A DNA stretch of 32,000 bases from Nostoc punctiforme PCC 73102 (GTDB taxonomy: Bacteria; Cyanobacteriota; Cyanobacteriia; Cyanobacteriales; Nostocaceae), in contig NC_010628.1 of NCBI RefSeq assembly GCF_000020025.1, positions 7,560,001-7,592,000 of the forward strand, given 5' to 3'. Position 1 is the stretch's first letter; each line of letters opens with the position of its first letter. Below the pieces are notes generated by a model. It saw only the letters and a program-made list of their open reading frames with translations, had not been told where the DNA came from and did not search any database. Shown here piece after piece: positions 12,740 through 31,666 of this stretch. The position numbers were made by a program, and so were the translations under genes.

Positions 12740-14992
12740 TTAAAGGGGGAATTTGATGATGAAAGTGGTTTGACCGACTCCACTCTCTACATAAATTGAG
12801 CCGCCTAAATGTCTGACCATTTTCTGCACTAATGCTAATTCCAGTCCAGTGCCGCTGTGTTTCCAAGGATCGTGTTTGGAAAGGTGATAAAAAGGCTCAA
12901 AAATCCGTGACAGTTCATTGCTGGTAAGCTCTAGTCCAGAATTGCTAATATTAAGCTCTACTGCATCCCCTCTTAAGTGGGTAGAGACTGTGACTGATTC
13001 ACCTGCTGGGGTATATTTGCAGACATGGTTGAGTAGTTCGGTGATAATCCTCTCCATATCCGTGATATCTGTCTCTAAAGGCGGGAGTGCGCGATCGATA
13101 CTCAGTTTTAACTGCTGTCGCTGACAGTTGGTGAGGTCTCGAAAAGACTCGACAATGGGCTGAAGCCAGCTTTGTAAGTCAATGGCAATCAAAGTTGGGG
13201 GTTCGGGTTCTGCTTCAAGATATGTGAGTTTGAGTAGATCGTTAATTAACTTGCTTTCTCGCGCACACTCGTTATGCAGAATCTGCAAGAGTTGTGGAAC
13301 TATTTCTATCTCTAATATTTCTGCTGGTGTTAAGACACTTTCGAGGGTTTGGACTGCAAGGCTGATGCTAGTTATTGGGGTTCGCAGTTCTTGAGAGAGA
13401 TTTCGGAGAAATTGGTTTTTGAGCCGATCGCAATTTTCTAATTCTTTAACTTGTGTCTGGGTTTGTTGGTAAAGTTGGGCTTGCCGAATTGCGATCGCAC
13501 ATTCATTGGCAACCTGCTGCACTAACTCAATTTCAAATTCATCAAATGCCTCTTGTGATGGTCTTGTCAACCAAAGATTTCCCAAAATCCCTTGAGTATC
13601 GAAAATTGGACAAGCCATCTGGGACATAACCAATAGGTTTGGTTGCCATCCAGGGGCAATTTCTAAAAATTGCAGAGGTTGTTTTTGCAACAAGGGTTGA
13701 TAAACTTCCAGACGGTCTGCAATCTGTCTAGTCAGTTCTTGACACTGTGGTAGGTTGTTGATGCTGCTGTACTCGTAGGCAATAGTTACCAGGGTTTGAC
13801 AGGGGCTATAGAGTTCAATTTGGCAACGTTCAAGGGTCAGTAACTCTGTTAATTCCTGAGTGACAGTCTGCAACACCTGAGTTTCATCCAGACGATCGCG
13901 GATTTGTTCTGTCATCCGTCGCACCAAGGCTTCAAAGTTTCGTACCTGCTGCAACTGATTTTTGTGCTTCTGTTTTTGCAACTCTATTTCGGCTTTGAGA
14001 TCCTTAAGCTGCTGACGAAGTTCTGCTTGTTGCACAGCAATGCCGATTTGAGTTGCCAGTTGTTTGAGTAAGCTAGTTTCTGCTTGCTGCCATTGACGCG
14101 ATTCCTGGCAATGATGGGCAATCAATAGCCCCCACATATCTTGCTCTTGGAAAATCGGCACGACTACATTGGCTTTAATCTGCAAAGATGCCAGGAAATC
14201 TATATGGTAGGGATGCAAACCTGCTGCATAAATATCCTCAACAACTTGAATGCAACCTTGCCCGTAGTGTTCTGGATGTTTGCCACTAAAGCAGGGATCG
14301 ATGATGTTTTTTCCCAATAGTGAATCGCTTGCAGCGACGCTTGCGGCAACAATTACCCCACTGCCATCAGGCTGGAAGCGATAAATTAGAATGCGATCGC
14401 AATTCAAAAATTGTCGCAGTTCAATTGTTGTCTGATGCAGAATTGTCTCTAATTCTATAGATTGGTGAATCCGTCCGGCGATCGCTTCTAACAACTGCTC
14501 CCGTTCAAACTGGAGTCCGACTGCTTCTTGGGCTTGCTTCACAGGGGTGATATTGCTACTAGTACCAATCAGTCGATAAATCCGGGAGTTAGCATCTCTT
14601 AGTGGCGTGAGAGTCGTACTCCACCAAGTAGTAACCCCCTGGAATTGCAAACATTGTTCGTAAGAAATAGTTTTACCAAATAGCACACAGTCAGCATAGT
14701 GCTGACGCACCCTCGCAGCATCGATGGGGGAGAGAATATCCTCTGGTTTTTTGCCTCGGAGATCGTCTGAGCGAATGCCTATCCACCGCTCATGAGTGGG
14801 ATTAAGTGCCACATACTGAAAATCTCCATCCTCTAGAACATCTACTACAAAGATTGATGCCTGCACAGAATCGTACATGCTCAGTAGAAATTGCTCGCTA
14901 CTATTTTTCTCATCTACTTCTGTGCCAAAGATAATTTGAGGGGGCGATAATTTTGTCAACTCCATAGTTGATTCTGCTGGATTTTTATTCAT
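12740..14992 (-). CDS. PAS-GAF-GAF sensor protein with a histidine-kinase-like C-terminus whose catalytic motifs are degenerate
   Basis: 750 aa. It has GAF-like blocks and a coiled coil (QQLKDLKAEIELQKQKHKNQLQQ). The H-box reads LSQELRTPIT, with Gln where His is expected. The N-box reads LLNHVCKYT. G1 reads ISNSGLEL and G2 reads GTGLELALV. Confidence 0.85.
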   Translation of the reverse strand: MNKNPAESTMELTKLSPPQIIFGTEVDEKNSSEQFLLSMYDSVQASIFVVDVLEDGDFQYVALNPTHERWIGIRSDDLRGKKPEDILSPIDAARVRQHYADCVLFGKTISYEQCLQFQGVTTWWSTTLTPLRDANSRIYRLIGTSSNITPVKQAQEAVGLQFEREQLLEAIAGRIHQSIELETILHQTTIELRQFLNCDRILIYRFQPDGSGVIVAASVAASDSLLGKNIIDPCFSGKHPEHYGQGCIQVVEDIYAAGLHPYHIDFLASLQIKANVVVPIFQEQDMWGLLIAHHCQESRQWQQAETSLLKQLATQIGIAVQQAELRQQLKDLKAEIELQKQKHKNQLQQVRNFEALVRRMTEQIRDRLDETQVLQTVTQELTELLTLERCQIELYSPCQTLVTIAYEYSSINNLPQCQELTRQIADRLEVYQPLLQKQPLQFLEIAPGWQPNLLVMSQMACPIFDTQGILGNLWLTRPSQEAFDEFEIELVQQVANECAIAIRQAQLYQQTQTQVKELENCDRLKNQFLRNLSQELRTPITSISLAVQTLESVLTPAEILEIEIVPQLLQILHNECARESKLINDLLKLTYLEAEPEPPTLIAIDLQSWLQPIVESFRDLTNCQRQQLKLSIDRALPPLETDITDMERIITELLNHVCKYTPAGESVTVSTHLRGDAVELNISNSGLELTSNELSRIFEPFYHLSKHDPWKHSGTGLELALVQKMVRHLGGSIYVESGVGQTTFIIKFPL

Positions 14993-18548: not shown

Positions 18549-20036
18549 TTAAAATCTTTCCACACCTTCAAATTGCTTGATAGCTGATGCATTTGCTGCT
18601 TCACCACAAGTTCGTGGTGTGGGGAATATCTTTTCAGGATTTGCTAACCCTTTGGGATTAAAAACTTGTCGTACCCATTGCATAGTTTCTAAATCAACTG
18701 GGCTAAACATCTGTGGCATATAGCACTTTTTCTCTGCACCAATGCCATGCTCACCAGAAATACTCCCACCAACTTGGACACAAAGTTTGAGAATTTTTCC
18801 ACCCATTTCCTCTACTTGTTCCAATGCTCCAGGCACAGAATTATCATAAAGAATTAATGGATGAAGATTGCCATCACCAGCATGAAATACATTAGCAACA
18901 CGATAACCATATTGTTCGCTTAATGCCTCAATTTCATGCAGAACAAAAGGCAACTGAGTCCGGGGAATTACACCATCTTGCACATAATAATCTGGACTTA
19001 AATGCCCAGCCGCAGCAAAAGCAGCTTTACGTCCTTTCCATAATTTCAATCTGGTTTCTGGATCGCTAGCAGAAGTGACATTTCGTGCCCCATTCTTTTT
19101 ACAAATTTCAGTCACTCGCTGCTTATTTCCTGCAACTTCCACTTCTAGCCCGTCAATTTCGATTAGCAAAATAGCAGTAGCATCGCGGGGATAACAATTT
19201 GTGGCGACAACATCTTCAACTGCATTGATGCTGAAGTTATCCATCATTTCCATACCGCCAGGAATAATTCCAGCGCTGATGATATCAGAAACAGTTGCTC
19301 CAGCAGCTTCAATACTGGTAAAATCCGCCAACAGTACGCAAATTGATTCTGCACTTTTGAGAATTCGCAAAGTAATTTCTGTGGCAATTCCTAAAGTGCC
19401 TTCAGAACCAACAAACACACCTGTTAAATCATAACCAGGCATTTCGGGTATTTGTCCGCCTAAATCTACAATTTCCCCTTCTGGCGTGACAATTTTTAAT
19501 CCTAAAACGTGGTTAGTGGTGACACCATATTTAAGACAATGTACGCCACCAGAGTTTTCAGCAATGTTGCCCCCAATAGAGCAGATAATTTGGCTAGATG
19601 GGTCAGGAGCGTAGTAAAAACCAGCACCACTAACGGCTTGTGTTACCCAACTATTAATCACGCCCGGTTGAACAATTGTGCGCTGATTTTCCAAATCAAT
19701 GCTGAGGATTTGCCGCATTAAGGAAGTGACAATCAAAACAGAGTCTTCTACTGGTAAAGCACCGCCAGATAGACCAGTACCAGAACCGCGTGCGATGAAG
19801 GGGATAGAATACTGATTGCATATTTTTACCACTTGGGCAACTTGTTCTGTTGTTCTAGGTAATACTACTACAGCCGGACGTTGGCGATAGCCAGTTAAAC
19901 CATCACATTCATAAGTAATAAGTTCTTCACGGCGTTGCACTACGCCATTTTTGCCAAGGACAACCTCGAATGCTTTGATAATAGGTTTCCAGTTGTGTTG
20001 TTTTTTATCTTGGGTCAGCATAGTTTTAAAGTTCAC
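18549..20036 (-). CDS. glcD: Glycolate oxidase subunit GlcD (FAD-linked oxidase)
   Basis: 495 aa. The FAD-binding PCMH-type region is ARGSGTGLSGGALP. The C-terminal motif is GGSISGEHGIGAEK. Confidence 0.85.
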   Translation of the reverse strand: MNFKTMLTQDKKQHNWKPIIKAFEVVLGKNGVVQRREELITYECDGLTGYRQRPAVVVLPRTTEQVAQVVKICNQYSIPFIARGSGTGLSGGALPVEDSVLIVTSLMRQILSIDLENQRTIVQPGVINSWVTQAVSGAGFYYAPDPSSQIICSIGGNIAENSGGVHCLKYGVTTNHVLGLKIVTPEGEIVDLGGQIPEMPGYDLTGVFVGSEGTLGIATEITLRILKSAESICVLLADFTSIEAAGATVSDIISAGIIPGGMEMMDNFSINAVEDVVATNCYPRDATAILLIEIDGLEVEVAGNKQRVTEICKKNGARNVTSASDPETRLKLWKGRKAAFAAAGHLSPDYYVQDGVIPRTQLPFVLHEIEALSEQYGYRVANVFHAGDGNLHPLILYDNSVPGALEQVEEMGGKILKLCVQVGGSISGEHGIGAEKKCYMPQMFSPVDLETMQWVRQVFNPKGLANPEKIFPTPRTCGEAANASAIKQFEGVERF

Positions 20037-20255
20037 TATAGTAACTTAGAGTTTAAAACAATACCCCAACTTTTTGAGTGATTTGTCATAGTTTTGAGCG
20101 GTTAACGACGGTTTGGCCATTGCGGCGTTCTTTCTTGCTTTACTGCTCTAGAACTTACGACAGGTTGTCTATTTGTCGCAAATGGTTATGTATTAGTTGC
20201 AAAGACTTAAGTAAAACTGATTAATGATTCCCCACTCATCATGTCAAAGTAGTGG

Positions 20256-20374
20256 CAATACTTCTCGCTTTGTGGATTTCTAATTCGGAATCGGGTTTGG
20301 GGTAAAGGGTAAAGGGTAAGGGTTAAAGGTTTTTTCTTTCCCTTTCCCCTTTACCCCTTAACCGAGAAGTATTG
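20256..20374. mobile_element. MITE-like element, copy 2 (same family as 1100-1207)
   Basis: TIRs are CAATACTTCTCG (20256-20267) and CGAGAAGTATTG (20363-20374). The interior is a GGTAAAGGG/CCCTTTACC hairpin. It is flanked by the identical 10-bp direct repeat AAAGTAGTGG (20246-20255 and 20375-20384). Confidence 0.8.
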
Positions 20375-20632
20375 AAAGTAGTGGTTTTAGATATGCCAAA
20401 TTTATCAATATATGTTCAAATAGTTTAAATCAGTTTGAAAATAGCAAATATTGACCATTCTTGCTCTAGCGCATTGGTATATCTAAAAAAAAATCTTGAT
20501 CTTATATCTACCTTAAGAAACAAAAATACAATTTGGTTTTATGTCTTCAGGTTTATGAAATCATGACAAACAATGCCTATAGTTGGGTCTTAGGTAGTCA
20601 CATACCTAATTTCGTAAGTGAGGCTAACAATC

Positions 20633-20920
20633 ATGTCATATCAAATCAACAGATCTAAGTTGTTTGTCGAGTTATTTGACGAACAACAAGAGCTAATCGC
20701 TGGTGGTGTAGACTCTCAGAGAAATCAGACCAATTTCGCTAGAAGACTTACAAAGTTAGACGGAAGGAGCAGATCTGGACCTCAAGGCAGCGAAGCTAAC
20801 AGTCAAGGCTCAAATGACGGTACTCAGACATCAGCATCACAGGCCTTACAATTAGGTGGTGCTGCTGTTCTACCTGCACTTGCCTTACCTCCTTTATTAC
20901 CAGGTCTGTTTACCGCTTAG
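20633..20920 (+). CDS. Double-glycine leader peptide precursor P1 (95 aa)
   Basis: The leader is MSYQINRSKLFVELFDEQQELIAGG. I prefer ATG 20633, which lies 9 nt after GTGAGG, to the GTG at 20618. The core is polar and ends in a hydrophobic Pro/Leu/Ala tail (LQLGGAAVLPALALPPLLPGLFTA). Confidence 0.8.
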   Translation: MSYQINRSKLFVELFDEQQELIAGGVDSQRNQTNFARRLTKLDGRSRSGPQGSEANSQGSNDGTQTSASQALQLGGAAVLPALALPPLLPGLFTA

Positions 20921-21943
20921 ATTGATTATTTCCACAGGTAATTTGAAAAAATCAGCTATTACATCATCAGAGCATTTAGCAAATTTAGGCAGAGAAAGAA
21001 GAGAAAGTAAAAAATAAAATGCCAAAAGTATTTTTTGTACTTGTTGGCTTTTATGACTTTTCTTAGTTTAAATTTGCAACTTTGAATCGAGTAGCTGATT
21101 ACTATAGAGACTACCTGTCTACTTTCACCACACAGCACCACCAATTTTATCATTGTGGTGCTGCTGGATAATCTGGAAATTCTAAGTTTCCGCTTCTTAG
21201 CCGATAGATATTCTACATCTTCATCATCTATCAAAATCATCGGCGAAAAGAGTATCAACGAGAAAGTTGTGAGTTAAGGTTTTCAACCATCCAAGAGCGA
21301 ATCTATTTTTTGTAAGACTTGTTTTTTACTATCTATCTTTTTTACCTGACCAGAAATCCAAATAAGTAATTTCAATACTTGTCTGTTATTTGACTCTGCA
21401 TAGAAACCAACCATCCAGATTCAGGGTGTAGGTTTGTAGTTAAGATTGTTTTGTTTATAAATAAAAAAGGGGGCAGAGGAGTTTATTGTAACTCGCTCAA
21501 CGTAAGTGAGGACTTTGAGGGAGTTTGAGCGTTCTCCTCTGTATTCTTACCGCGTTGCCCGCGTTTGAATCTTGAGAAAGATAAATTCGCTTATCTTGTC
21601 GCGCACATCTTTCTCTTCCCCTTTTACTAATTATAGACAATCATAAAACATTATGCTGGGAATTTTTAGCAGTATATACTTTCTCATTCTTGAATTTGGC
21701 AAACACTCCTGATGATAGCCCATTTCACATTGTGATTAGCTATCTGATTAATCTTGGCAAGATTAACATAGACTTTAATTCTTTAATATGCCCTGTGGCG
21801 TATGACCAAAGATATATATTTTTTTGTAGCATCTGATTTGCAATCAATGTATGTAAGATAATCAGCTTTGCAGCAAAAGAATTGGGGTTGATATTATATA
21901 AATCTGAGCTTTTGACGTATACATTTTCAAAAAATGATCTAAC

Positions 21944-23452
21944 ATGGCGAACTATTTAGTCCGCGAGGAAAACTATTTTGGAAATAGGTTTAATGAACCC
22001 AATCCAGAACAACTCCATGTAGTTGATGTTAACGAGTTTCTCCCCCATCTCAGCAAATGGACTAACATTGGCGGAGGAATTTTACTTACTACCTTTGTGG
22101 CTGCGATCGCTCTTACATCTATTCTCAGTTACAATGTCACGGTCAAAGTTCCTGCAAGTATTCGACCTGTAGGAGAACTACGGGTTGTTCAGTCTGCTAT
22201 GGCTGGAACCGTTCAAAACATTGATATTCAAGAAAATCAGGTGGTGGCTCAAGGACAAGCGATCGCTCAAATTGATAATTCTCGCCTTCAGACTCAAAAG
22301 AGTCAACTAGAAAATAGTATTCAGCAAGGTAAATTACAACAAAGTCAAATTAATGCTCAACTGGGTGAAATCGATACCCAGATTGCAGCGCAGACAAACT
22401 TAACCAACCGCACGCTTATTGCTGCACAAGCTGAATTAGATGGGACACAACGCAACTATCAAGATCAGCAAATTAAAGCTGCGGCTGATATGACACAAGC
22501 ACAAGCAGCTTTAATCTTAGCCAAGGTACAACGCGATCGCTTACTAAGGGAAAAAGTTTTAAGGGCAACTGTACAAGAAGCAGAAGCAGCTTTGCAAGTA
22601 GCCAAGGTGCAACGTGACCGATTGCAGCCGATAGTCGCATCGGGATCGGTTTCTCGCAATCTGTTTGAGGAAAAAGAACAAGCAGTTATATCTGCTCAGG
22701 CGAAGCTAGAAGAAGCTAAAGTTACTGCTAAAAATCTTTTGGAGGACAAAGAACAAGCCCTAAATATCGCGCAAACGAATTTAGAAAAAGCTAAAACCGC
22801 AATTAATGCCAGTAATGCTACAGTAATAGTGGCATCTGAACGGATTAAGCAGGAACGGGCTAGAGGTGAGGCTACTTTAGCCGCTTTGAAAAAAGAACGA
22901 GAAACCTTACTCCAGCAACGCCTTGAACTCCAAAAACAACTCGCTAGCAGCAGCAAAGATTTGCAACAGGTTCAAACCGACTTGAATTTGAGTGTGATTC
23001 GATCGCCAATCGCCGGAACACTGTTGCAATTGAATCTTCGCAACCCAGGACAAGTAGTGCAGCCAAGTGAAGCGATCGCTCAGATTGCTCCTCTCAACGC
23101 TTCTTTACTACTTAAAGCTCGTGTGCCGGCTCAAGATATTGACAAGGTAAAAGCAGGACAAAAAGTTCAAATGCAAGTTTCTGCTTGTCCCTATCCAGAC
23201 TACGGCACTCTCAAAGGAACTGTCAAAACAGTTGCACCAGATGCTTTACCTGTAAAAAATAATGGAAATTCAGGTGTAGCCCAGATAGTTGCTTATGAAG
23301 TAACTATTGAGCCACAAACTTCATATTTGAGTAGAGGCGATCGCCAGTGTCATCTGAAAGCGGGTATGGAAGGTAGGGCTGATATAATTTCCCGCCGAGA
23401 AACAGTGCTTCAGTTCATTCTCCGCAAAGCCAGATTCATCACAAATTTTTAA
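21944..23452 (+). CDS. HlyD-family membrane fusion/adaptor protein
   Basis: The N-terminal TM is IGGGILLTTFVAAIALTSILSY. It has a long Gln/Ala-rich coiled coil with a repeated LAKVQRDRL and a C-terminal beta domain. It lies directly upstream of the ABC exporter. Confidence 0.85.
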   Translation: MANYLVREENYFGNRFNEPNPEQLHVVDVNEFLPHLSKWTNIGGGILLTTFVAAIALTSILSYNVTVKVPASIRPVGELRVVQSAMAGTVQNIDIQENQVVAQGQAIAQIDNSRLQTQKSQLENSIQQGKLQQSQINAQLGEIDTQIAAQTNLTNRTLIAAQAELDGTQRNYQDQQIKAAADMTQAQAALILAKVQRDRLLREKVLRATVQEAEAALQVAKVQRDRLQPIVASGSVSRNLFEEKEQAVISAQAKLEEAKVTAKNLLEDKEQALNIAQTNLEKAKTAINASNATVIVASERIKQERARGEATLAALKKERETLLQQRLELQKQLASSSKDLQQVQTDLNLSVIRSPIAGTLLQLNLRNPGQVVQPSEAIAQIAPLNASLLLKARVPAQDIDKVKAGQKVQMQVSACPYPDYGTLKGTVKTVAPDALPVKNNGNSGVAQIVAYEVTIEPQTSYLSRGDRQCHLKAGMEGRADIISRRETVLQFILRKARFITNF

Positions 23453-23464
23453 TCAACGCCGTGT

Positions 23465-23595
23465 CGGGTGCAACTTTCTCTCAGACCTAACCCCCAACCC
23501 CTTCCCTACTAGCGTTGGGGAGCAAGAATCAAAGCCTCTCTCCCTGTGAGGGAGAGGAATGGAAGCGGGGTTCTAAAGATAAGTTGCACATCCCG
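23465..23595. repeat. Nostoc-type intergenic repeat/MITE remnant between hlyD and the ABC gene
   Basis: The terminal imperfect inverted repeats are CGGGTGCAACTT (23465-23476) and AAGTTGCACATCCCG (23581-23595). Internal hairpins include CTCTCTCCCTGTGAGGGAGAGG. Confidence 0.6.
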
Positions 23596-23624
23596 TTAAT
23601 CACTCATTTAATAGGTCTGTAACC

Positions 23625-25793
23625 ATGTTCGATCTATTCAAACCCCATAAAAATTACCAGTGTGTTTTGCAGTTGAGTGAAGAAGACTGTGGAGCCGCCA
23701 GCCTTGCTTCAATTTGCAAACATTACGGACGTTTTTTAAGCATAAATCGCAGTCGAGATGCCGTTGGAACTGGACAGCTAGGAACAACTTTGCTGGGTTT
23801 AAAGCGTGGATCTGAGAATCTGGGTTTTAATGCCAGGGCAGTGAAAGCTTCACCTGCGATCGTGGATAGAATCACAGAAATCAATCTACCAGCAATTATT
23901 CATTGGCGGGGTTATCATTGGGTTGTTTTATACACCAAGCGCGGCAATAAGTACGTTATTGCCGATCCAGCTGTGGGTATCCGTTATATTAACCAAGAAG
24001 AGTTAACAGAAGCTTGGAATGGGGTGATGCTCTTACTAGAGCCAGATCCAGTCCGCTTTTTTGAGCAGCCCGCAGAAGAAGCAAAAGGTGGCTTAAGTCG
24101 CTTTTTAGTACGCATCTTGCCTTATCGTGGACTGCTAACTCAAGTTTTAACGATCAATATTGTCTTAGGTCTGTTGGCTCTAGGTACTCCCGTCTTGATC
24201 CAACTGCTTACAGATGATGTACTTGTGCGTGGAGATACCCAGTTACTCACTGTTGTGATCTCAGCCGTTGTAGTTATGAGCTTATTCGGCAGTACTTTGC
24301 AACTATTGCAGGCGATTATGATTGCTCATTTTGGGCAGCGACTGCAATTAGGATTAGTCTTGGAATTTGGGCGAAAAATTCTCCAATTGCCTTTAAATTA
24401 CTACGAAGCTCGTCGTAGTGGTGAAATCACTAGCCGTCTGCGAGATATCAACGACATCAACCAGTTGGTATCGCAAATTGTAGTTCTTTTACCTAGCCAA
24501 TTTTTTGTTGCCGTGGTTTCTTTTGGCCTGATGCTGTTTTACAGCTGGAAACTGACAATGGCAGTCGTAGTTTTTGCTGGGTTAATTACCCTCTCTACGC
24601 TACCCTTTTTACCCATCCTCCAACAAAAAACCCGCAGTCTCTTAGTTTTAGGGACGGAAAATCAAGGTGTTTTGGTGGAAACATTTAAGGGCGCACAAGT
24701 AATCAAAACTACAAATGCCGCTCCGCAGTTTTGGGATGAATTTCAAAGCCGCTTTGGCTGCCTTGCTAACTTGACTTTTAGCACCATCCAAATCGGTATT
24801 ATCAACGGTACTATTAGCAAGCTTATAGCTAGCCTTGGTGGTGTGATTTTACTTGGTTTAGGAAGTATCTTGGTGATTAATGGGGAATTAAGCATTGGTC
24901 AAATGTTGGCTTTTAACGCCTTACAGTTCAATGTTCTGGCTTTAATTAACTCACTGGTTGGCTTAGTAGATGAATATTTTCGCTCTCAAACAGCAATTTC
25001 TCGCCTTCTAGAAGTTATCGATGCGACACCGGAAGTAGTCGGAGGTAGCCAAAAGCCGGTTGTCCAAATTTCTAGTGATGCAGACATTCGCTGTTCCCAT
25101 GTCCAATTTCACCACCCTGGCAGAGTTGACTTATTAGAGGATTTTTCTCTCAAACTTCCTGGAGGGAAAGCGATCGCTTTGATTGGTAAGTCAGGTTGTG
25201 GTAAAAGTACTTTAGCGAAAGTGATTGCAGGCTTATATCAGCCTAACTCTGGCAATATCCGCATTGGTTTCTATAACATCAACGACCTTTCCCTGGATTG
25301 TTTGCGACAACAAGTAGTCTATGTACCCCAAGAACCTCATTTCTGGAGTCGCTCAATTTTAGAAAACTTCCGCTTAGGAACACCTTATATTTCCTTTGAG
25401 GAAATTGTCAAAGCTTGCCAGATAGCTGATGCAGATGAGTTTATCAGCCAACTTCCGAATCAGTATCAAACAGTTTTAGGGGAATTTGGGGCAAATATCT
25501 CTGGTGGACAAAGACAACGATTAGCGATCGCTAGAGGCATTCTTACCAATCCACCTGTACTGATTTTAGACGAAGCAACAGCTGGACTCGATCCAGTCAG
25601 TGAATCTCACGTACTAGACAGGCTTTTGGAATACCGAGAAGGCAAAACTACTATTTTGATTACCCATCGTCCCAGCGTAATTAATCGAGCCGATTGGATT
25701 GTACTACTAGATAAAGGTCAGGTACAAATACAAGGCGATCTTGAGACTTTTCTCTCTCAGCAAGGAGAGCATTTAAAGTTTTTATCACTGTAA
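23625..25793 (+). CDS. Peptidase C39 domain-containing ABC transporter (bacteriocin/peptide processing exporter)
   Basis: The N-terminal C39 motifs are QLSEEDCGAASLASI (Cys), GYHWVVL (His) and IADPA (Asp). There are six TM segments. The nucleotide-binding motifs are Walker A GKSGCGKST, signature ISGGQRQRLAIAR, Walker B VLILDEAT and H-loop ITHR. Confidence 0.9.
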   Translation: MFDLFKPHKNYQCVLQLSEEDCGAASLASICKHYGRFLSINRSRDAVGTGQLGTTLLGLKRGSENLGFNARAVKASPAIVDRITEINLPAIIHWRGYHWVVLYTKRGNKYVIADPAVGIRYINQEELTEAWNGVMLLLEPDPVRFFEQPAEEAKGGLSRFLVRILPYRGLLTQVLTINIVLGLLALGTPVLIQLLTDDVLVRGDTQLLTVVISAVVVMSLFGSTLQLLQAIMIAHFGQRLQLGLVLEFGRKILQLPLNYYEARRSGEITSRLRDINDINQLVSQIVVLLPSQFFVAVVSFGLMLFYSWKLTMAVVVFAGLITLSTLPFLPILQQKTRSLLVLGTENQGVLVETFKGAQVIKTTNAAPQFWDEFQSRFGCLANLTFSTIQIGIINGTISKLIASLGGVILLGLGSILVINGELSIGQMLAFNALQFNVLALINSLVGLVDEYFRSQTAISRLLEVIDATPEVVGGSQKPVVQISSDADIRCSHVQFHHPGRVDLLEDFSLKLPGGKAIALIGKSGCGKSTLAKVIAGLYQPNSGNIRIGFYNINDLSLDCLRQQVVYVPQEPHFWSRSILENFRLGTPYISFEEIVKACQIADADEFISQLPNQYQTVLGEFGANISGGQRQRLAIARGILTNPPVLILDEATAGLDPVSESHVLDRLLEYREGKTTILITHRPSVINRADWIVLLDKGQVQIQGDLETFLSQQGEHLKFLSL

Positions 25794-25823
25794 AAAATAG
25801 TCTTTGTATGAGCAAATAAAACT

Positions 25824-26141
25824 ATGTCTGAAAATACCAAATCCCATCATCCTGAATGGCTCAGTGATTTGTCGGAAAAAGAACAGGAAAACTTAGCTGC
25901 TGGGCAAATCACAAATATACCTGGCGGAAGTAATTTTTTTCTCCAGCAAACTAATATCCAAAGTGCGGCAGACAATACATTAAAGCTTGTAAGTGGTGAT
26001 GTTTCTTCACAAAAAACTAGATATAGTTTGTCACAATTTACTATTGGATCTTCCATAACGTTTGGTTTACCAAGCTCTAGTTTAGGAGAGAATAAATGGA
26101 AAAATTTAATTGCCAATCTATTAAATAGTATCTTCTCATAA
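25824..26141 (+). CDS. Leader-peptide precursor P2 (105 aa) with a variant Ala-Gly site
   Basis: LSDLSEKEQENLAAG aligns with the L(-12) S(-11) ... L(-4) x x G(-1) positions of P3 and P4. The start lies 31 nt after the ABC stop. The core is Ser/Thr/Gln-rich. Confidence 0.65.
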   Translation: MSENTKSHHPEWLSDLSEKEQENLAAGQITNIPGGSNFFLQQTNIQSAADNTLKLVSGDVSSQKTRYSLSQFTIGSSITFGLPSSSLGENKWKNLIANLLNSIFS

Positions 26142-26173
26142 AAGTTATTTTTTGGAAAATAAATCTTCTAGAC

Positions 26174-26201
26174 GTAGAGGCACAATTACTCGTGCCTCTA
26201 C
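26174..26201 (+). terminator. Hairpin after P2
   Basis: GTAGAGGCAC (26174-26183) pairs with GTGCCTCTAC (26192-26201), a 10-bp perfect stem with an 8-nt loop, followed by ATTTGTT. Confidence 0.55.
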
Positions 26202-26461
26202 ATTTGTTAATAAGATATAGATATCTCAAATCTTAGGTTCCTAAGTCAAGATAAAACTTGAGGTATTTATCAATATTTGGTGCGGTTTTACCAATATTAA
26301 AATGCAAAATTATTTTGATTTTTATTTTATTTTTCATGAGTCAAAAGGAATAAGTTTGTTATTATTATTTCTAACCTGAGAATAATTTAAACTGTCAAAA
26401 AATAATTACTATTAAAAATATAGGTGAATAACACCTATGTTAGTAAGTGAGGTAAAAAATT

Positions 26462-26704
26462 ATGTCAAATCAAATTACCATGTCTGATTTGCTTGTGGAC
26501 TTATCTACAGAGCAACAACAGCTTCTAGCTGGTGGACAAAATGGTGAAGAAGGAGACTCAGGCGATCAAGAATCAGGTGATGAAGGAGCGGTTGATGAAG
26601 AGCCTTCTTCCGTTGGTGGAGGCCCATCTCCAGGCACTTCCCGTCGTAAACGATTCTTTATTAGTGGTATCGTGAGTCTCCGTAAAATCCCAAGGTGGTC
26701 CTAA
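26462..26704 (+). CDS. Double-glycine leader peptide precursor P3 (80 aa), acidic-then-basic core
   Basis: The leader is MSNQITMSDLLVDLSTEQQQLLAGG. GTGAGG lies 9 nt before the ATG. The core is QNGEEGDSGDQESGDEGAVDEEPSSVGGGPSPGTSRRKRFFISGIVSLRKIPRWS. Confidence 0.8.
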   Translation: MSNQITMSDLLVDLSTEQQQLLAGGQNGEEGDSGDQESGDEGAVDEEPSSVGGGPSPGTSRRKRFFISGIVSLRKIPRWS

Positions 26705-26798
26705 ACTTTGGAATTAGTGGGGAAAAGAAAAGCTCATAATAATTCTCTCAAGATAAATTCAATTTTGAGAAAGGATTTGAGCAGTCTCCTATAACCAG

Positions 26799-26820
26799 AC
26801 AAGGGGCTTAAGCCCCTTGT
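26799..26820 (+). terminator. 22-nt perfect palindrome between P3 and P4
   Basis: ACAAGGGGCTTAAGCCCCTTGT. There is no clear T-run, so it may attenuate rather than terminate. Confidence 0.4.
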
Positions 26821-26926
26821 TAAATATAGGTAAACTCCGTTTACTTCAGAGAAAAGTACAGCAAAAGCTGTCTCCCTCAAGGCACTAGCCATTCTTTTGC
26901 ACTGTACAAAAGTGAGGCAAACAATT

Positions 26927-27112
26927 ATGTCATCTCAATCCATCCAATCCGATTTGCTTGTCGAGCTATCCATAGAGCAACAGGAGCTTTTAGGTGGAGG
27001 TTACGTCCGCAGGTGGGGCGGCGGTTTGCGTCCTAGATGGCGCGGCGGTTTGCGTCCTAAATGGGGCGGCGGTTGGCGTCGTGGATGGGGCAGTCCCAGA
27101 TCCTGGTACTAA
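26927..27112 (+). CDS. Double-glycine leader peptide precursor P4 (61 aa), Arg/Trp/Gly-rich cationic core
   Basis: The leader is MSSQSIQSDLLVELSIEQQELLGGG. I prefer ATG 26927, 9 nt after GTGAGG, to the TTG at 26897. The core is YVRRWGGGLRPRWRGGLRPKWGGGWRRGWGSPRSWY. Confidence 0.8.
   Translation: MSSQSIQSDLLVELSIEQQELLGGGYVRRWGGGLRPRWRGGLRPKWGGGWRRGWGSPRSWY
27017..27088 (+). repeat. Three tandem 24-nt repeats encoding GGGLRPRW / RGGLRPKW / GGGWRRGW
   Basis: Units: GGCGGCGGTTTGCGTCCTAGATGG, CGCGGCGGTTTGCGTCCTAAATGG and GGCGGCGGTTGGCGTCGTGGATGG. They are in frame within P4. Confidence 0.9.
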
Positions 27113-27278
27113 GCCTATTTAACTTGCACTTTTTGCCGTCTGGAATACTTGCAACAAGGCTTTCCACTCCCAATGCTAAAAAACCAACAGATGATAAGAA
27201 ATATGCCGAAGTTTGCAAGTCAGGGCAGAACAAGTGCGTATCTCTGTATTCCGCGTTTTAGACTAAGCTTGAAAGACG

Positions 27279-27306
27279 AAAAAGCCCGTTAAAACGGGCT
27301 TTTATC
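27279..27306. terminator. Bidirectional terminator between the peptide genes and the convergent hydrolase gene
   Basis: AAAGCCCGT-TAAA-ACGGGCTTT, flanked by an A-run on the left and TTATCTT on the right. Confidence 0.65.
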
Positions 27307-27418
27307 TTATATTAATTCTCTGTAAACTTGCACTTAATAATTACTCTTTTACCGCTACCAGATGTATTCTCTACATAGTTTGTGTCTGTGGCAAGCAATA
27401 AAAGCTTTCAACTGAATC

Positions 27419-28321
27419 TCACACTGCCGATCGCTCCCAAATCCAATCAAGTAAAATCGGATTGACTAACTCTGGTGCTTCATCTTGGGGACAATGCCCA
27501 ACTCCTTCTAAAGGAATAAACTTTTGTACCTGTGGGAAATTAGCCAATTCTCTACCTAACTTAATTGGTTCCCAGGGATCGGCCGTTCCCCACAAGATAA
27601 TTGCCGGACAAGGTAGCAGCGGTAAAAGGTCTTCTGGTAGAGGCCCTGTAGAATAAGAAGTGAAGGCAAGGAAAACAGCTACAGCCCCCGGATCGCTTGC
27701 TGGTGAAGTGAGAATATCCACCAACTCATCTGTTACCATCTCAGGATTCGCATAAGCTTTTAGTAAAATCTTCCGTACTGTTTTCGGTTTGGCAAGTTGA
27801 TTGAAAAAGAAATCACCAACTGGTTTGATAGAAAGCAAGCGTTGCAGTAAGGGCGCTCCGACACGACGAGTCCAAGGTAAAGTTACCCGTTTGCGATCGT
27901 GCAACAGCCGTAAAGAACAGTTGAGCAATGCAACTCCCAAGGCAATATCTGGGTTGCTAACAGCTGCTTGCATAGCTACAATACAGCCAATAGAATTTCC
28001 AACTAAAAAAGCAGGTTCGCCGACAACTTCACGGCAAAAATCTGCTATTTGTTGTCCCCATGTTTCTAGAGTGTAGGTAATTTTTTCACCAGGTTTAGGT
28101 TTTGCGGAACCGCCAAAACCAATCAAATCAATAGCATAAACTCGGCAATTTTGTGCTAACACGGGAATATTTTTCCGCCAATGCCACCAAGAAGCGCCAA
28201 ATCCATGCACGAGGACAACAGCAGGTCCAGTGGTTCCTTGGGTTTGATAGCAGATAGGGAAATCTTGCCAAATCCAGGTTTCTGTAGAGGTAAATGCTGT
28301 TTTTGAACTTGAGGTTGTCAT
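27419..28321 (-). CDS. Alpha/beta-fold hydrolase
   Basis: 300 aa. The oxyanion HG motif is VVLVHGFGAS and the nucleophile elbow is GNSIG. The C-terminal His lies in GVGHCPQDE. Confidence 0.8.
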   Translation of the reverse strand: MTTSSSKTAFTSTETWIWQDFPICYQTQGTTGPAVVLVHGFGASWWHWRKNIPVLAQNCRVYAIDLIGFGGSAKPKPGEKITYTLETWGQQIADFCREVVGEPAFLVGNSIGCIVAMQAAVSNPDIALGVALLNCSLRLLHDRKRVTLPWTRRVGAPLLQRLLSIKPVGDFFFNQLAKPKTVRKILLKAYANPEMVTDELVDILTSPASDPGAVAVFLAFTSYSTGPLPEDLLPLLPCPAIILWGTADPWEPIKLGRELANFPQVQKFIPLEGVGHCPQDEAPELVNPILLDWIWERSAV

Positions 28322-28577
28322 GGGAAATTTTAGGAATACAAGAGTAAAAGCCCGTCAGCAGCAAGGCGTAAGTAAAATTCTTTTGAATTTGAATAAAATT
28401 TATCAGATTTTCAAATAAAATCCTTTGGTCTAGTGATAACTTAGACATACACTAGAAAAGCTTCTAGGTTGATAGTTTTATCCAGGTAAAGAGTTTTCAT
28501 CTTGTTGATAGAGGTAATTTCCTCACAACTTAGATTATGTCAGCATTAGGAATCATCGCTTCTATAATATGAGTAAT

Positions 28578-29580
28578 AGACTTGTCGGGAAATAAGAGAG
28601 AATAGACAGCAGTGGTAGGGAAGAATGATGCTGAATATTGAAGGTGCGCTGAAGCAAGACCGACTGTTGAGGGCATTAACTGGGTTGAACCGGAAAGCAT
28701 TTGATGCCCTTTTGCCCACGTTTACCACGATGTACCTAGATACTCAACAGGCCAAGCCTCGTCAACGTGGCCTGGGTGGAGGACGCAAAGCCCGCTTACT
28801 TACAGCCCAAGACAAATTGTTTTTCATCCTTTTCTATTTCAAATGTTATCCGACCTTCGATGTGGCGGGACTGCTCTTTGATATGCATCGCTCCCAGGCA
28901 CATGAGTGGATGCATCGATTGCAGCCAATATTAGAAGCGGCTTTGGGACAGAAGATGGCGCTGCCGGAACGCCATCTCGAAAGCATTGAAGCATTTTTGT
29001 CACGCTTTCCAGGAGTGCAACGAGTGATGATTGATGGGACAGAACGCCCAATTGCGCGACCTCAAGAAAGAGAACAACAACAACAGAATTACTCCGGTAA
29101 AAAGAAACGTCATACGCGTAAACACTTGGCGGCAGTTGATGAAACCAAACGGGTCTTGATCTTAAGCAAAGCACGAGAAGGCAAACTGCATGACAAACGT
29201 TTTCATGACGAAGATGACATTGCAGGTAGTGTGCCTGATGAAATTCCGATTGAAGTAGACTCGGGCTTTCAGGGATTACAGAAGCAGTATGACAATCTCC
29301 ATCTTCCTCACAAAAAGCCCAAAGGGGGCAAGTTAAGTGACCTTCAAAAAACGGAGAATCGTCAATTGAGTCAATCCCGTGTAGTTTGCGAAAATGCCTT
29401 TGCTGGTGTGAAGCGCTACAACGCCGCCAGTGTCATTTATCGTAATCGGATTGAAAACTTTGATGACCATTTGATGCTGACCGCAGCAGGATTATGGAAC
29501 TTCTACTTGATGGCTGCTTAAGAGAATCCCAATTACAAGACCAGCATTGCCTCACTTATCTTTTATTTCCCGACAACTCT
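28578..29580 (+). mobile_element. IS5-family (DDE_Tnp_4/Harbinger-like) insertion sequence, 1003 bp
   Basis: The TIRs are AGACTTGTCGGGAAATAAGAGA (28578-) and the reverse complement of TCTTTTATTTCCCGACAACTCT (-29580). They match at about 22 of the first 24 positions. AAT occurs on both flanks (28575-28577 and 29581-29583). Confidence 0.8.
28625..29521 (+). CDS. IS5-family DDE transposase
   Basis: 298 aa. It has an N-terminal HTH region. The candidate DDE residues are MIDGTERP, EVDSGFQG and CENAFAGVKRY. Confidence 0.8.
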   Translation: MMLNIEGALKQDRLLRALTGLNRKAFDALLPTFTTMYLDTQQAKPRQRGLGGGRKARLLTAQDKLFFILFYFKCYPTFDVAGLLFDMHRSQAHEWMHRLQPILEAALGQKMALPERHLESIEAFLSRFPGVQRVMIDGTERPIARPQEREQQQQNYSGKKKRHTRKHLAAVDETKRVLILSKAREGKLHDKRFHDEDDIAGSVPDEIPIEVDSGFQGLQKQYDNLHLPHKKPKGGKLSDLQKTENRQLSQSRVVCENAFAGVKRYNAASVIYRNRIENFDDHLMLTAAGLWNFYLMAA

Positions 29581-29776
29581 AATATTTTTGCCATTTTTTT
29601 AGATGTGAGTGAATTAGCATCAGTGCTAGATTCAGTAGATTCACAATTTACGATCGCTATTTTGATCTATAACATTGTCAGAATATGAGGCATCGGCTAA
29701 GGGGTGGTTTGCAACTGGAAACTGACGCTGAATTTAACAACATTTTTCTTGTTCCTAGTTCTGCGAGCCAGACAAT

Positions 29777-30331
29777 ATGAATATACTAGAAACAATCGAT
29801 ACTCCCATCGGGAGCTATGCACCCGATTTTGAACTGCCAGGAATTGACGGTCAAGTACACCATCTCAGGCGTTATCTTGAGAAGTTCCGAGCAGTGGGCG
29901 TTATTTCTATGTGTAACCACTGTCCTTATGTAGAGTGGTATATAGACAGGTTAAAAAAGATTCAAGCCAAATTTGCCCCCAAAGGCTTCACACTAATTGG
30001 GATGAATGGTAGTGATGGTAATCATGAAACTAGGACAAGCTTTGAAAATATGAAAGCTTTTGCCGAGCGTCACAATTTGAACTTTCCTTACCTGTGGGAC
30101 TCGACGCAAGATGTAACCCAAAGTTTTGGTGCTACGAAAACACCAATGGCCTTTTTAATAGATGCCAATGGTATAGTCCGCTACAAAGGCAAAATTGACA
30201 ATCATCCCCAAGATGCATCAGCAGTGGGAGAAGAATATTTAAGAACTGCGATCGCCTCTCTATTTCTTGGCCAACCAATAGATGTACCACAAACAGAACC
30301 AGTAGGTACTACATTGATTTGGCGTAACTAG
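29777..30331 (+). CDS. Thioredoxin-fold protein (redoxin/AhpC-TSA-like) with CxxC
   Basis: [10 protein letters not shown] is followed by the CNHCPYV redox motif. The length, 184 aa, fits the family. Confidence 0.75.
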
Positions 30332-30402
30332 ACATAGATAGTCCCTGTAACTGCTATCTTAAATTGGAGGCAATTGCAACTTTTTTGATAAAGCGTAACT
30401 TC

Positions 30403-31131
30403 ATGGGAACGAATTACCGACGGGTTTTACTCAAACTGAGCGGTGAAGCCTTAATGGGCAACATGGGCTATGGCATTGATCCAGAAGTGGTCAAAGGAAT
30501 AGCTCAAGAGGTAGCAGAGGTGATAGCCACTGGCGTTCAAATGGCCATCGTTGTTGGCGGCGGCAATATTTTTCGTGGCGTGAAAGCAGCGTCGGCGGGG
30601 ATGGACAGGGCAACCGCTGACTACATAGGGATGATTGCCACGGTAATGAACGCCATGACGTTGCAAGATTCGCTAGAACACATAGGGGTACAGACGCGGG
30701 TGCAAACTGCGATCGCTATGCAAGAATTAGCAGAACCATATATCCGTCGTCGTGCCATCCGTCATCTTGAAAAAGGGCGGGTGGTAATTTTTGGGGCTGG
30801 TTCTGGAAATCCCTTCTTTACTACAGATACTACTGCGGCACTTAGAGCAGCAGAAATTGATGCGGAAGTGATTTTTAAAGCCACCAAAGTAGACGGGGTG
30901 TATGATGCTGACCCTGAGATTTATCCTAACGCCAAGCGTTACAATAGCCTTACCTACGCGCACGTTCTAGCCAAAGATCTGCGGGTGATGGATAGTACTG
31001 CGATCGCCTTGTGTAAAGAAAATAATATCCCAATTCTGGTATTTGACCTAACGGTGCGAGGTAACATCCACCGAGCAGTCTTGGGAGAATCCATCGGTAC
31101 CCTTGTGGGAGGTTCTTGTGATATTAGCTGA
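30403..31131 (+). CDS. pyrH: UMP kinase
   Basis: [29 protein letters not shown] and [17 protein letters not shown] are present. I prefer ATG 30403 to the TTG at 30364. Confidence 0.95.
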
Positions 31132-31666
31132 CGCGAAAAGCAAAATGCAAAGTTCTGTTGAGTCAACTCAACGAGCTTTTAACACGATCCGCACTGGTCG
31201 CGCCAATGCGAGTCTATTAGATAAGGTATTAGTGGACTATTACGGTTCACCTACACCCTTAAAATCACTGGCAAATATTAGCACGCCAGATGCCTCGACA
31301 ATTCTAATTCAACCTTACGAACGCAACACCCTAAACATTATTGAGAAGGCGATTTCTCTTTCAGATGTTGGTTTAACCCCCAGCAACGATGGTTCTGTAA
31401 TTCGGCTGAATATTCCGCCTTTGACAAGCGATCGCCGAAAAGAATTCGTCAAAATGGCTACTAAGTACGCTGAAGAGGGTCGTGTTGCTATTCGTAACAT
31501 CCGCCGCGATGCCATAGACTCGATTCGCAAGCAGGAGAAAGCCTCTGAAATCTCCAAAGATGAATCAAAAGACCAACAAGACAACTTGCAAAAACTCACA
31601 AACGAGTATACAAGCAGAATAGACGCACTATTGGCAGAAAAAGAAAAAGACATTACGACTGTTTAA
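31118..31666 (+). CDS. frr: Ribosome recycling factor
   Basis: [42 protein letters not shown] is canonical RRF. GTG 31118 gives a 182-aa product. The gene overlaps pyrH by 14 nt. Confidence 0.9.

Follow-up and report, generated by a model that had tools for sequence, protein, structure and literature searches.

Cyanobacterial gene clusters for peptides with double-glycine (GG) leaders have been catalogued since 2004-2011, and almost none has a known product or function. Here we describe one such gene, P4, in a 32,000-nucleotide (nt) stretch of Nostoc punctiforme PCC 73102 (contig NC_010628.1, positions 7,560,001 to 7,592,000), called the window below, to which all coordinates refer unless another locus is named. 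P4 is the last of four small peptide genes (P1-P4) around a HlyD gene and a C39 peptidase-containing ABC exporter (PCAT), and it lies 1.1 kb downstream of the ABC gene. By gene content, the closest described systems are the group III clusters, which hold HlyD and a short-type C39 ABC transporter with several precursors and without LanM, SurA or S8 (Wang, Fewer & Sivonen 2011). The P4 locus is alike in its HlyD, short C39 ABC exporter and four GG precursors, and no enzymes that modify RiPPs (peptides made by the ribosome and altered after translation) were found in the window. No group III or CTB cluster has a demonstrated antimicrobial product; in the literature searched, CTB bacteriocins appear only as annotation labels, and one study reports that a CTB operon is transcribed under P-limitation in Nodularia. 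The P4 leader, SDLLVELSxEQQELLxGG, is the CTB family leader, whereas the P4 core shares nothing with the CTB core of P1. In the group III cluster alr1200/alr1201 of PCC 7120, the last precursor, asr1204 (68 amino acids, pI 12.3, net +6.5), was listed without comment (Wang et al. 2011 Table S3, PMC3140520). By position and isoelectric point (pI), asr1204 may be a model-organism counterpart of P4.

Class II microcins and bacteriocins (colicin V, ComA/PCAT1 substrates) are likewise small, unmodified peptides whose GG leader is removed by a C39 domain and which are exported by an ABC exporter with a membrane-fusion protein. Known microcins are rich in Gly, Ser and Ala, are in many cases anionic or hydrophobic, and depend on receptor-mediated uptake. 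P4 differs from them in its Arg/Trp/Gly repeat of net charge +10, in a locus that is core-genome and not accessory, and in that no immunity gene was found. EbfG1-4/PteB of Synechococcus elongatus PCC 7942 resembles the P4 locus in architecture: several small GG-motif proteins with low-complexity cores stand beside a C39 PCAT and HlyD, and EbfG secretion depends on the C39 cysteine. However, the EbfG cores are not polycationic and have a biofilm matrix/amyloid function, and ebfG1-4 lie upstream of pteB, a gene order other than that of the P4 locus.

By chemistry, the nearest peptides are of eukaryotic origin. Among the Gly-rich repeat antimicrobial peptides (AMPs; armadillidin, shepherins), armadillidin consists of six GGGF(H/N)(R/S) units, and armadillidin H is a linear, membranolytic peptide of charge +7 without defined secondary structure. 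The P4 core is likewise a linear cationic GGG-aromatic-basic repeat, with three 8-residue units of the form (G/R)GG(L/W)R(P/R)xW. Armadillidin, however, comes from isopod haemocytes, is unrelated by descent and has 47 % Gly with Phe/His, against 28 % Gly with Trp/Arg in P4. With the Trp/Arg-rich AMPs (indolicidin, tritrpticin, lactoferricin-derived RW peptides), P4 shares high Trp and Arg contents, a positive charge and Pro; unlike P4, these are 6-13 residues long, contain little Gly and no repeats, and come from eukaryotic cathelicidin/lactoferrin precursors. This resemblance is compositional and is not family membership. Judged by sequence, the P4 core is unrelated to any characterised bacteriocin. 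A first-pass annotation of the window had noted no known GG-leader bacteriocin of such composition; that holds for characterised peptides in the literature searched, where we found no description of Arg/Trp/Gly repeat GG-peptides, but the databases hold dozens of unnamed Nostocales relatives. The export system and leader are known; this repeat-polycation class of cargo and its order-wide positional conservation are, to our knowledge, undescribed.

Structure and conservation of the P4 gene

The P4 open reading frame (ORF) translates as MSSQSIQSDLLVELSIEQQELLGGGYVRRWGGGLRPRWRGGLRPKWGGGWRRGWGSPRSWY* and divides into the leader MSSQSIQSDLLVELSIEQQELLGGG and the core YVRRWGGGLRPRWRGGLRPKWGGGWRRGWGSPRSWY (Table 1). 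Its first in-frame start is a TTG at 26897, but the ATG at 26927 is the likely start, since a GAGG stands 9 nt upstream of it and every relative begins MSxQ. An overlapping ORF at 26994-27122 (42 amino acids, GTG start) was rejected, as it has no leader and lies in a frame other than that of the conserved leader. At the leader start, positions 26931-26950 form an imperfect 9-10-nt direct repeat (CATCTCAATC / CATCCAATCC) that encodes SSQSIQS and is kept in MSSQ-type orthologs.

GG leaders have about 15-30 residues and end in GG, GA or GS; that of P4 has 25 residues and ends LLGGG, with LLAGG at the same aligned position in the orthologs (...ELLAGG|N versus GGG|Y in the window). Cleavage after G25 fits this register, which is fixed by the AGG|N of the orthologs; a cut after G24 would add one Gly and give a mass of 4411.31 Da. 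The consensus leader is an amphipathic helix with hydrophobic residues at -4, -7, -12 and -15; P4 has Leu at -4, -12 and -15 and Gln at -7. AlphaFold, run with a 6-sequence alignment, returned a predicted local distance difference test score (pLDDT) of 54, and the sole feature was a short leader helix at residues 16-22 (pLDDT ~55). It gave the core no regular or confident structure, an outcome that is consistent with disorder but no proof of it. Against the NCBIfam model NF038167 ('CTB family bacteriocin'), P4 scored 20.9 bits over profile positions 1-22 of 72, below the 32-bit cut-off. Pfam gave no match for P4 and its orthologs in a library scanned without PF28158, the Pfam model of the CTB family, and precomputed PF28158 matches are labelled 'weak' for orthologs P0002-P0005 and are absent for P0001.

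By script, the predicted mature core counts R9 K1 W6 G10 P3 Y2 L2 S2 V1 with zero Asp or Glu, in exact agreement with an earlier hand count of 9 Arg, 1 Lys, 6 Trp, 10 Gly and no acidic residue. Trp thus makes up 6/36 residues (17 %), Arg plus Lys 10/36 (28 %) and Gly 28 %. The core has a grand average of hydropathy (GRAVY) of -1.4 and no amyloid-prone hydrophobic stretch, and its DNA has a G+C content of 67 % versus 40 % for the window. The anionic leader and cationic core had been taken to suggest a self-neutralised pro-form. The calculation does not support this idea: with -4 on the leader and +10 on the core, the whole precursor still carries ~+5.5 at pH 7 (pI 11.5). Moreover, the same anionic leader also precedes acidic cores (P3, net -3; P0021, P0026, P0028 and P0047). 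Because one leader fronts acidic and basic cores, its charge is a family constant, probably tied to exporter recognition, and not an adaptation to the P4 core.

Protein and genome searches recovered syntenic P4 orthologs in a JGI Nostoc genome (97 % identical), Nostoc sp. C110, FACHB-133, LEGE 12450 and UCD121, and in three assembled read sets, one of which (L003) encodes the same peptide as Nostoc sp. C110. On the database check of conservation and repeat-number variation proposed in the first-pass annotation, orthologs stand in 8 Nostoc genomes or contigs, with 2.2-3.3 copies in those that bear the array. Aligned at the DNA level, the cores differ by many substitutions and by indels of 3, 6 and 24 nt, and all 8 orthologs keep the reading frame and the place of the stop. 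Since frame and stop survive indels that are all multiples of 3, the core is coding, and on this sequence pattern we take P4 with high confidence to be a genuine gene. The ORF has no annotation in some genomes, and the LEGE 12450 ortholog was met by genome scan and is absent from a core-only protein search (43-residue query). As that search returned the 97 %-identical P0001 alone, the exact core sequence reads as lineage-specific.

All ortholog cores are Arg/Trp/Gly-rich (e.g. NVRRWGGGWRPKWRGGWRPKWGGGWRRGWGGPRAW and NFRRWGGGWRPGWGGGWRSRGGSGFRPWRGGRSWW), with the exception of FACHB-133. In this ortholog (P0005; L004 10001-10183) the 24-nt repeat has turned into G-C-P-H-R units (NVRRWDGSWPHRGGCGCPHRGGSGCPHRRGGGWPW), with Cys/His in place of much Trp/Arg, which makes it a possible metal-binding or disulfide variant.

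Repeat turnover between conserved flanks

The three consecutive 24-nt units first read at 27017-27088 (GGGLRPRW / RGGLRPKW / GGGWRRGW) were recovered, with identities of 22/24, 19/24 and 21/24. At up to 3 mismatches, the 24-mer consensus matched these three places only in the window, and 0/100 shuffles gave a match. We also considered whether the unit is a dispersed non-coding element, which the first pass had named as a possible refutation, and rejected this: besides being unique in the window, it drew 40 metagenome matches that were single, non-tandem and due to chance, on unrelated contigs of 52-72 % G+C with stops in frame. A metagenome scan for DNA encoding DLLVELSIEQQELL gave zero matches.

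Among the orthologs, Tandem Repeats Finder (TRF) detected the 24-nt period in L001 (3.3 copies), LEGE 12450 (2.8), FACHB-133 (3.2, with another consensus) and L006 (2.2), and UCD121 bears the array as well. The period fell below the TRF threshold in C110 and L005, the latter being one unit short. Units resemble their neighbours in the same strain more than same-position units of other strains: identity is 19-22/24 within the window and 19-21/24 within FACHB-133, versus 15-18/24 between the two. Neighbouring units have strain-specific changes in common: window units 1 and 2 both read TTG (Leu), and every FACHB-133 unit reads CCTCAT (Pro-His). Because likeness within strains exceeds that between strains, and the array is present in several orthologs, the comparison indicates that the array is older than the divergence of the strains and has been homogenised by slippage or gene conversion (concerted evolution). 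The core had been ascribed to recent in-frame tandem duplication; the tandem array stands, but it is not simply recent, as it predates the strains and evolves in concert.

The flanks behave differently from the core. Mean pairwise DNA identity is 0.70 in the upstream intergenic DNA, 0.93 in a ~55-nt 5' block (about 26872-26926), 0.98 in the leader, 0.73 in the core and 0.91 in the 3' untranslated region (UTR). The 5' block is largely conserved among orthologs, with its last ~50 nt near-invariant, and the leader DNA is 95-100 % identical with a single synonymous change across all strains. As a calibration, the flanking ABC and hydrolase genes show differences at their 4-fold sites of 0.6-2.6 % to the closest strain and of 17-19 % to the farthest; for the ABC gene, the figure against L001 is 0.6 %. 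By this yardstick, the 5' block, leader and 3' UTR are conserved well beyond neutral expectation. In the core, the window differs from L001 by 2 non-synonymous and 0 synonymous changes, and from LEGE 12450 (L007) by 6 and 2.

The 3' block (~190 nt) is conserved far above the 4-fold-site level and is confined to this Nostoc clade, being absent from Anabaena-type loci. None of its six frames shows coding-type substitution, and non-synonymous changes far outnumber synonymous ones; a hidden immunity gene there (27057-27233 minus or 27061-27261 plus) was rejected on these grounds. RNAalifold folded the 3' UTR into a long hairpin that pairs 27126-27145 with 27219-27240 (minimum free energy z-score -1.5, one covarying pair), and covariation is not assessable because the arms are invariant. 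The terminator at its end has a 10-bp stem. Rfam gave sub-threshold chance matches only on 20000-28500. The block could act as an mRNA stabiliser, as the source of a 3'-derived small RNA, or as a homology anchor for core exchange. Upstream of P4, the 26800-26819 hairpin has no T-run and was not called by the terminator scan; it may be a transcription terminator or attenuator.

The exporter locus and its relatives in the Nostocales

The exporter encoded beside P4 carries a Peptidase_C39 match of 3.4e-34 in Pfam. In alignments with E about 1e-21, its C39 domain matches the ComA peptidase domain (3k8u) and PCAT1 (4ry2), and Gln15, Cys22, His98 and Asp114, in the motifs LQLSEEDCG, GYHWVV and IADP, align with the catalytic residues of 3k8u. 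The domain is therefore predicted to be catalytically competent. The exporter is of the short type, starting directly with C39 and lacking a cyclic-nucleotide (cNMP)-binding (CAP_ED) domain.

The gene order runs CTB peptide, HlyD, PCAT, P2-like gene, variable GG peptides, convergent alpha/beta hydrolase, AhpC/TSA, pyrH and frr. This order (window 20633-31666) is syntenic in L001, L002, L004, L005 and L050-L053 where the DNA reaches far enough; L050 is Anabaena sp. UHCC 0187, L051 a syntenic JGI contig, L052 a second Anabaena, whose DNA stops short of the genes upstream of the transporter, and L053 Calothrix sp. PCC 7507. Across the syntenic loci, 3-5 peptide genes follow the ABC gene. In L050-L053, a Gly/Arg/aromatic polycation of unrelated sequence is encoded by the final or penultimate peptide gene ahead of the hydrolase. 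These comparisons describe a core-genome locus in which, at the P4 position, composition and repeat architecture are conserved and sequence is not.

The relatives extend well beyond Nostoc. A profile search of 1.84 billion representatives gave 48 matches, small peptides with the leader MSxQxIxSDLLVELSTEEQQLLSGG and very different low-complexity cores; P0006, P0007 and P0018 among them were set aside as large, unrelated repeat proteins. A second profile search retrieved 223 proteins, and all that carry an organism name are from the Nostocales (Nostoc, Anabaena, Dolichospermum, Nodularia, Cylindrospermum, Desmonostoc, Calothrix PCC 7507, Sphaerospermopsis and others), nearly all labelled 'hypothetical protein'. 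Among the 138 retrieved members with a recognisable leader, 53 have a core with at least 60 % Gly, Arg/Lys and aromatic/His residues, a net charge of at least +3 and almost no acidic residues, 23 of these 53 being Trp-rich, and 88 of the 138 repeat an exact 4-mer at least twice; these fractions are biased upward by a query profile built from P4-like peptides. The polycations include HYWGGGWGRPRWGGGWGRPRWGGGWGRPRWGGGYRRW (Anabaena), RYGFRRGGFRRGGFRRGGFRRFGYFF (Goleter), (GRPYY)x5 and (GRPFI)x6. The same leader is also joined to Tyr/Pro/Gly low-complexity cores, e.g. the GYNPP repeats of P0017.

Other cargo types share the leader. One (P3; L005 8641-8856; P0021, P0026, P0028 and P0047) has a strongly acidic, variable Gly/Asp/Glu N-part and a conserved, basic/hydrophobic, RFFISGIVSLRKIPRWS-like C-end, and the acidic P3 and the adjoining polycationic P4 may be partners. 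Another joins Cys-rich basic segments (KNKRCYKKCYWYCPK, CCKPK motifs) to acidic stretches, a make-up that suggests disulfide-bonded peptides with built-in counter-charge. Two transposase regions were also seen: an insertion sequence (IS) element (DDE_Tnp_4 / HTH_Tnp_4 transposase, 298 amino acids) at 28625-29521, between the hydrolase and the AhpC-like gene and absent from the collinear L001 and L002, and a second transposase pair (HTH + DDE_3) at 5764-6845.

Table 1. Features of the P4 locus and of related loci (window coordinates unless a locus is named).
Feature	Position	Strand	Evidence and remarks
P1, CTB-family precursor, full length, 95 aa	20633..20920	+	NF038167 79.2 bits over positions 1-72 (cut-off 32)
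HlyD-family periplasmic adaptor, 502 aa	21944..23452	+	Pfam HlyD_3 4.7e-21, TIGR01843 5e-45
Peptidase-containing ABC exporter (PCAT), 722 aa	23625..25793	+	C39 + ABC_membrane + ABC_tran (Pfam); predicted leader protease and exporter
P2, 105 aa, N-terminus leader-like ...NLAAG|Q	25824..26141	+	Present in every syntenic locus examined
P3, GG-leader peptide, 80 aa	26462..26704	+	Acidic N-part, basic/hydrophobic C-end, core net -3
G+C-rich hairpin CAAGGGGCTT/AAGCCCCTTG, between P3 and P4	26800..26819	+	Sequence and alignment; kept in closer orthologs only
Shine-Dalgarno-like GAGG	26914..26917	+	9 nt 5' of ATG, within the ~55-nt 5' block
P4 precursor gene	26927..27112	+	61 codons plus stop; ORF list and translation, syntenic frame-preserving orthologs in 8 Nostoc genomes/contigs
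P4 leader, 25 residues, MSSQSIQSDLLVELSIEQQELLGGG	26927..27001	+	Net charge -4; double-glycine cleavage motif at end
P4 predicted mature core, 36 residues	27002..27109	+	Net +10, pI 12.0, monoisotopic 4354.29 Da if unmodified
In-frame 24-nt tandem array	27014..27091	+	TRF period 24, 3.2 copies, 87 % matches, zero indels, score 121; unit W-G/R-G-G-L/W-R-P/R-R/K/G
Conserved 3' UTR	27113..27303	+	Ends in bidirectional intrinsic terminator 27280-27303 (terminator scan), shared with convergent hydrolase gene
Alpha/beta-hydrolase gene, convergent to P4	27419-28321
Cys-rich cargo type, same leader	L050 6927-7082, 7360-7566; L051 7453-7647; L009 6603-6824, 7759-8010

Possible roles of the exported peptide

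Taken together with its leader and neighbours, P4 reads as a genuine ribosomally made export substrate. The role that we favour, tentatively and at somewhat less than an even chance, is that of a membrane- or envelope-active defence or antagonism peptide. In this model, the C39 domain of the adjoining ABC exporter would recognise the 61-residue precursor by its leader, which is conserved, amphipathic and anionic; the precursor would be cut after Gly25 (...ELLGGG|YVRR...) and pumped out through the type-I-like ABC/HlyD conduit. The product would be a disordered 36-residue polycation (+10) of W-G-G-G-(W/L)-R-x-x units, presumably unmodified because no modification genes lie nearby. Outside the cell, Arg (electrostatic, hydrogen bonding) and Trp (interfacial) would bind anionic surfaces, and the core would diversify by slippage and gene conversion in its 24-nt repeat between the conserved flanks.

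We favour a defence role because the composition unites the Trp/Arg and the Gly-rich GGG-aromatic-basic AMP chemistries, because this chemotype is maintained across an order, and because a conserved leader before a hypervariable, replacement-dominated core mirrors the evolution of animal AMP precursors. Such precursors classically combine a conserved pro-region with a mature part that is cationic and hypervariable, and the hypervariable core between a near-invariant leader and UTRs forms an arms-race-like pattern. Going by composition only, antimicrobial action is plausible. A real gene that keeps its place across heterocyst-forming cyanobacteria while its sequence changes fast, P4 is a candidate bacterial counterpart of animal glycine/tryptophan-rich defence peptides.

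Several points weigh against a defence role. Fast change in low-complexity sequence can also come from relaxed constraint, with no arms race involved. Bacteriocin loci tend to be patchy, while this one belongs to the core genome and spans the order. No immunity gene turned up, the only small hydrophobic ORFs nearby, at 27057-27233 (minus) and 27061-27261 (plus), having no synonymous excess; we know of no universal signature of immunity proteins. Leader position -7 is Gln where the canonical residue is hydrophobic, and the promoter scan found no sigma-70-like site on the plus strand upstream of P4. Finally, the only experimentally studied cyanobacterial system of HlyD/PCAT and GG-peptides makes biofilm matrix proteins, EbfG1-4.

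A wider form of the defence reading, which we consider doubtful, is that heterocyst-formers share an order-wide, innate-immunity-like core-genome locus, in which a conserved leader and PCAT chassis deliver hypervariable, repeat-generated Gly/Arg/aromatic polycations. Slippage and gene conversion in a short in-frame repeat between ultra-conserved flanks would keep reshaping the cores, and the polycations would be the bacterial analogues of host-defence peptides of the armadillidin and indolicidin types.

Among the alternatives, the best supported, though in our view unlikely, is that P4 serves the extracellular matrix, the sheath or adhesion, as a peptide that binds and cross-links anionic exopolysaccharide, lipopolysaccharide or extracellular DNA. 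It might form complexes or coacervates with the acidic P3 through Arg-aromatic cation-pi contacts and charge, and so affect filament aggregation or biofilm. EbfG1-4 give the precedent: they carry GG motifs, need the PteB C39 cysteine for secretion and enable biofilm formation, and EbfG1-3 are reported in later work to form amyloid. In the paper citing that amyloid work, the HlyD/PCAT clusters of Anabaena PCC 7120 count as EbfG/PteB-like candidates. A conserved core-genome locus beside housekeeping genes (pyrH, frr) is as expected for a physiological function, and the lack of a visible immunity gene agrees with it. The Tyr/Pro/Gly cores of P0017 recall the EbfG1/2 peptides TTYNPPSYPYPSYPK and SGYSIPTYPK, P3 (core net -3) adjoins P4 (+10), and keeping composition while sequence turns over is typical of low-complexity structural or adhesive proteins. 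Microcins that do both jobs are reported from Acinetobacter. Yet P4 has no amyloid-prone hydrophobic stretch (GRAVY -1.4), and 36 residues, a charge of +10 and richness in Trp are more in keeping with a membrane-active peptide than with a scaffold protein.

It is very improbable that P4 is a signalling or developmental cue (filament-to-filament, hormogonium/heterocyst or symbiosis) with a receptor, as proposed for the HetC substrate. In Gram-positive bacteria, quorum-sensing peptides do leave the cell through PCATs; HetC, a PCAT whose peptide substrate is not known, is needed for heterocyst differentiation; and the P4 locus is conserved in the heterocyst-forming cyanobacteria and confined to them. 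Signals, however, co-evolve with their receptors and are normally sequence-specific, while here composition alone is kept and copy number and sequence differ even among close strains. Besides, HetC-type long PCATs have a cNMP-binding domain that this exporter lacks, and no cognate sensor is adjacent, a GAF/PAS histidine kinase at 12740-14992 lying ~6 kb upstream of P1 with nothing to tie it to the locus.

Least probable of all is that P4 has no function, being a non-coding or decaying G+C-rich repeat or a pseudogene-like remnant of a leader cassette conserved for RNA-level features: leader and UTR nucleotide conservation beyond protein-coding need, more replacement than silent change in the core, the missing promoter and the patchy annotation (with the LEGE 12450 ortholog missed by the core-only search) would suit it, but frame, stop and in-frame Gly/Arg/aromatic composition are kept in 8/8 Nostoc orthologs and in positional equivalents in other genera, indels are all multiples of 3, the repeat is found nowhere else in the window and by chance only in metagenomes, and Rfam gave no match.

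P4 belongs to a family and is not a singleton, which makes the finding broader than the first observation. The analysis defines a coherent and easily synthesised chemotype, namely unmodified tandem-repeat polycations of Gly/Arg/Trp (or Phe/Tyr), 20-45 residues long, at one syntenic locus of the Nostocales. If they are antimicrobial, as a defence role would have it, they would form a new class of unmodified bacterial AMPs, convergent with the animal Gly-rich and Trp/Arg-rich peptides, and the dozens of natural variants in the databases would be a ready structure-activity series. Should the innate-immunity-like form be true, the locus would offer a bacterial example of the architecture of conserved pro-region and hypervariable mature peptide. 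If what the peptides bind is instead the sheath or matrix, they would carry the EbfG paradigm over to multicellular cyanobacteria. In either case, a repeat core that evolves in concert, framed by an invariant leader and UTRs, is a compact natural system in which to study the diversification of low-complexity secreted peptides.

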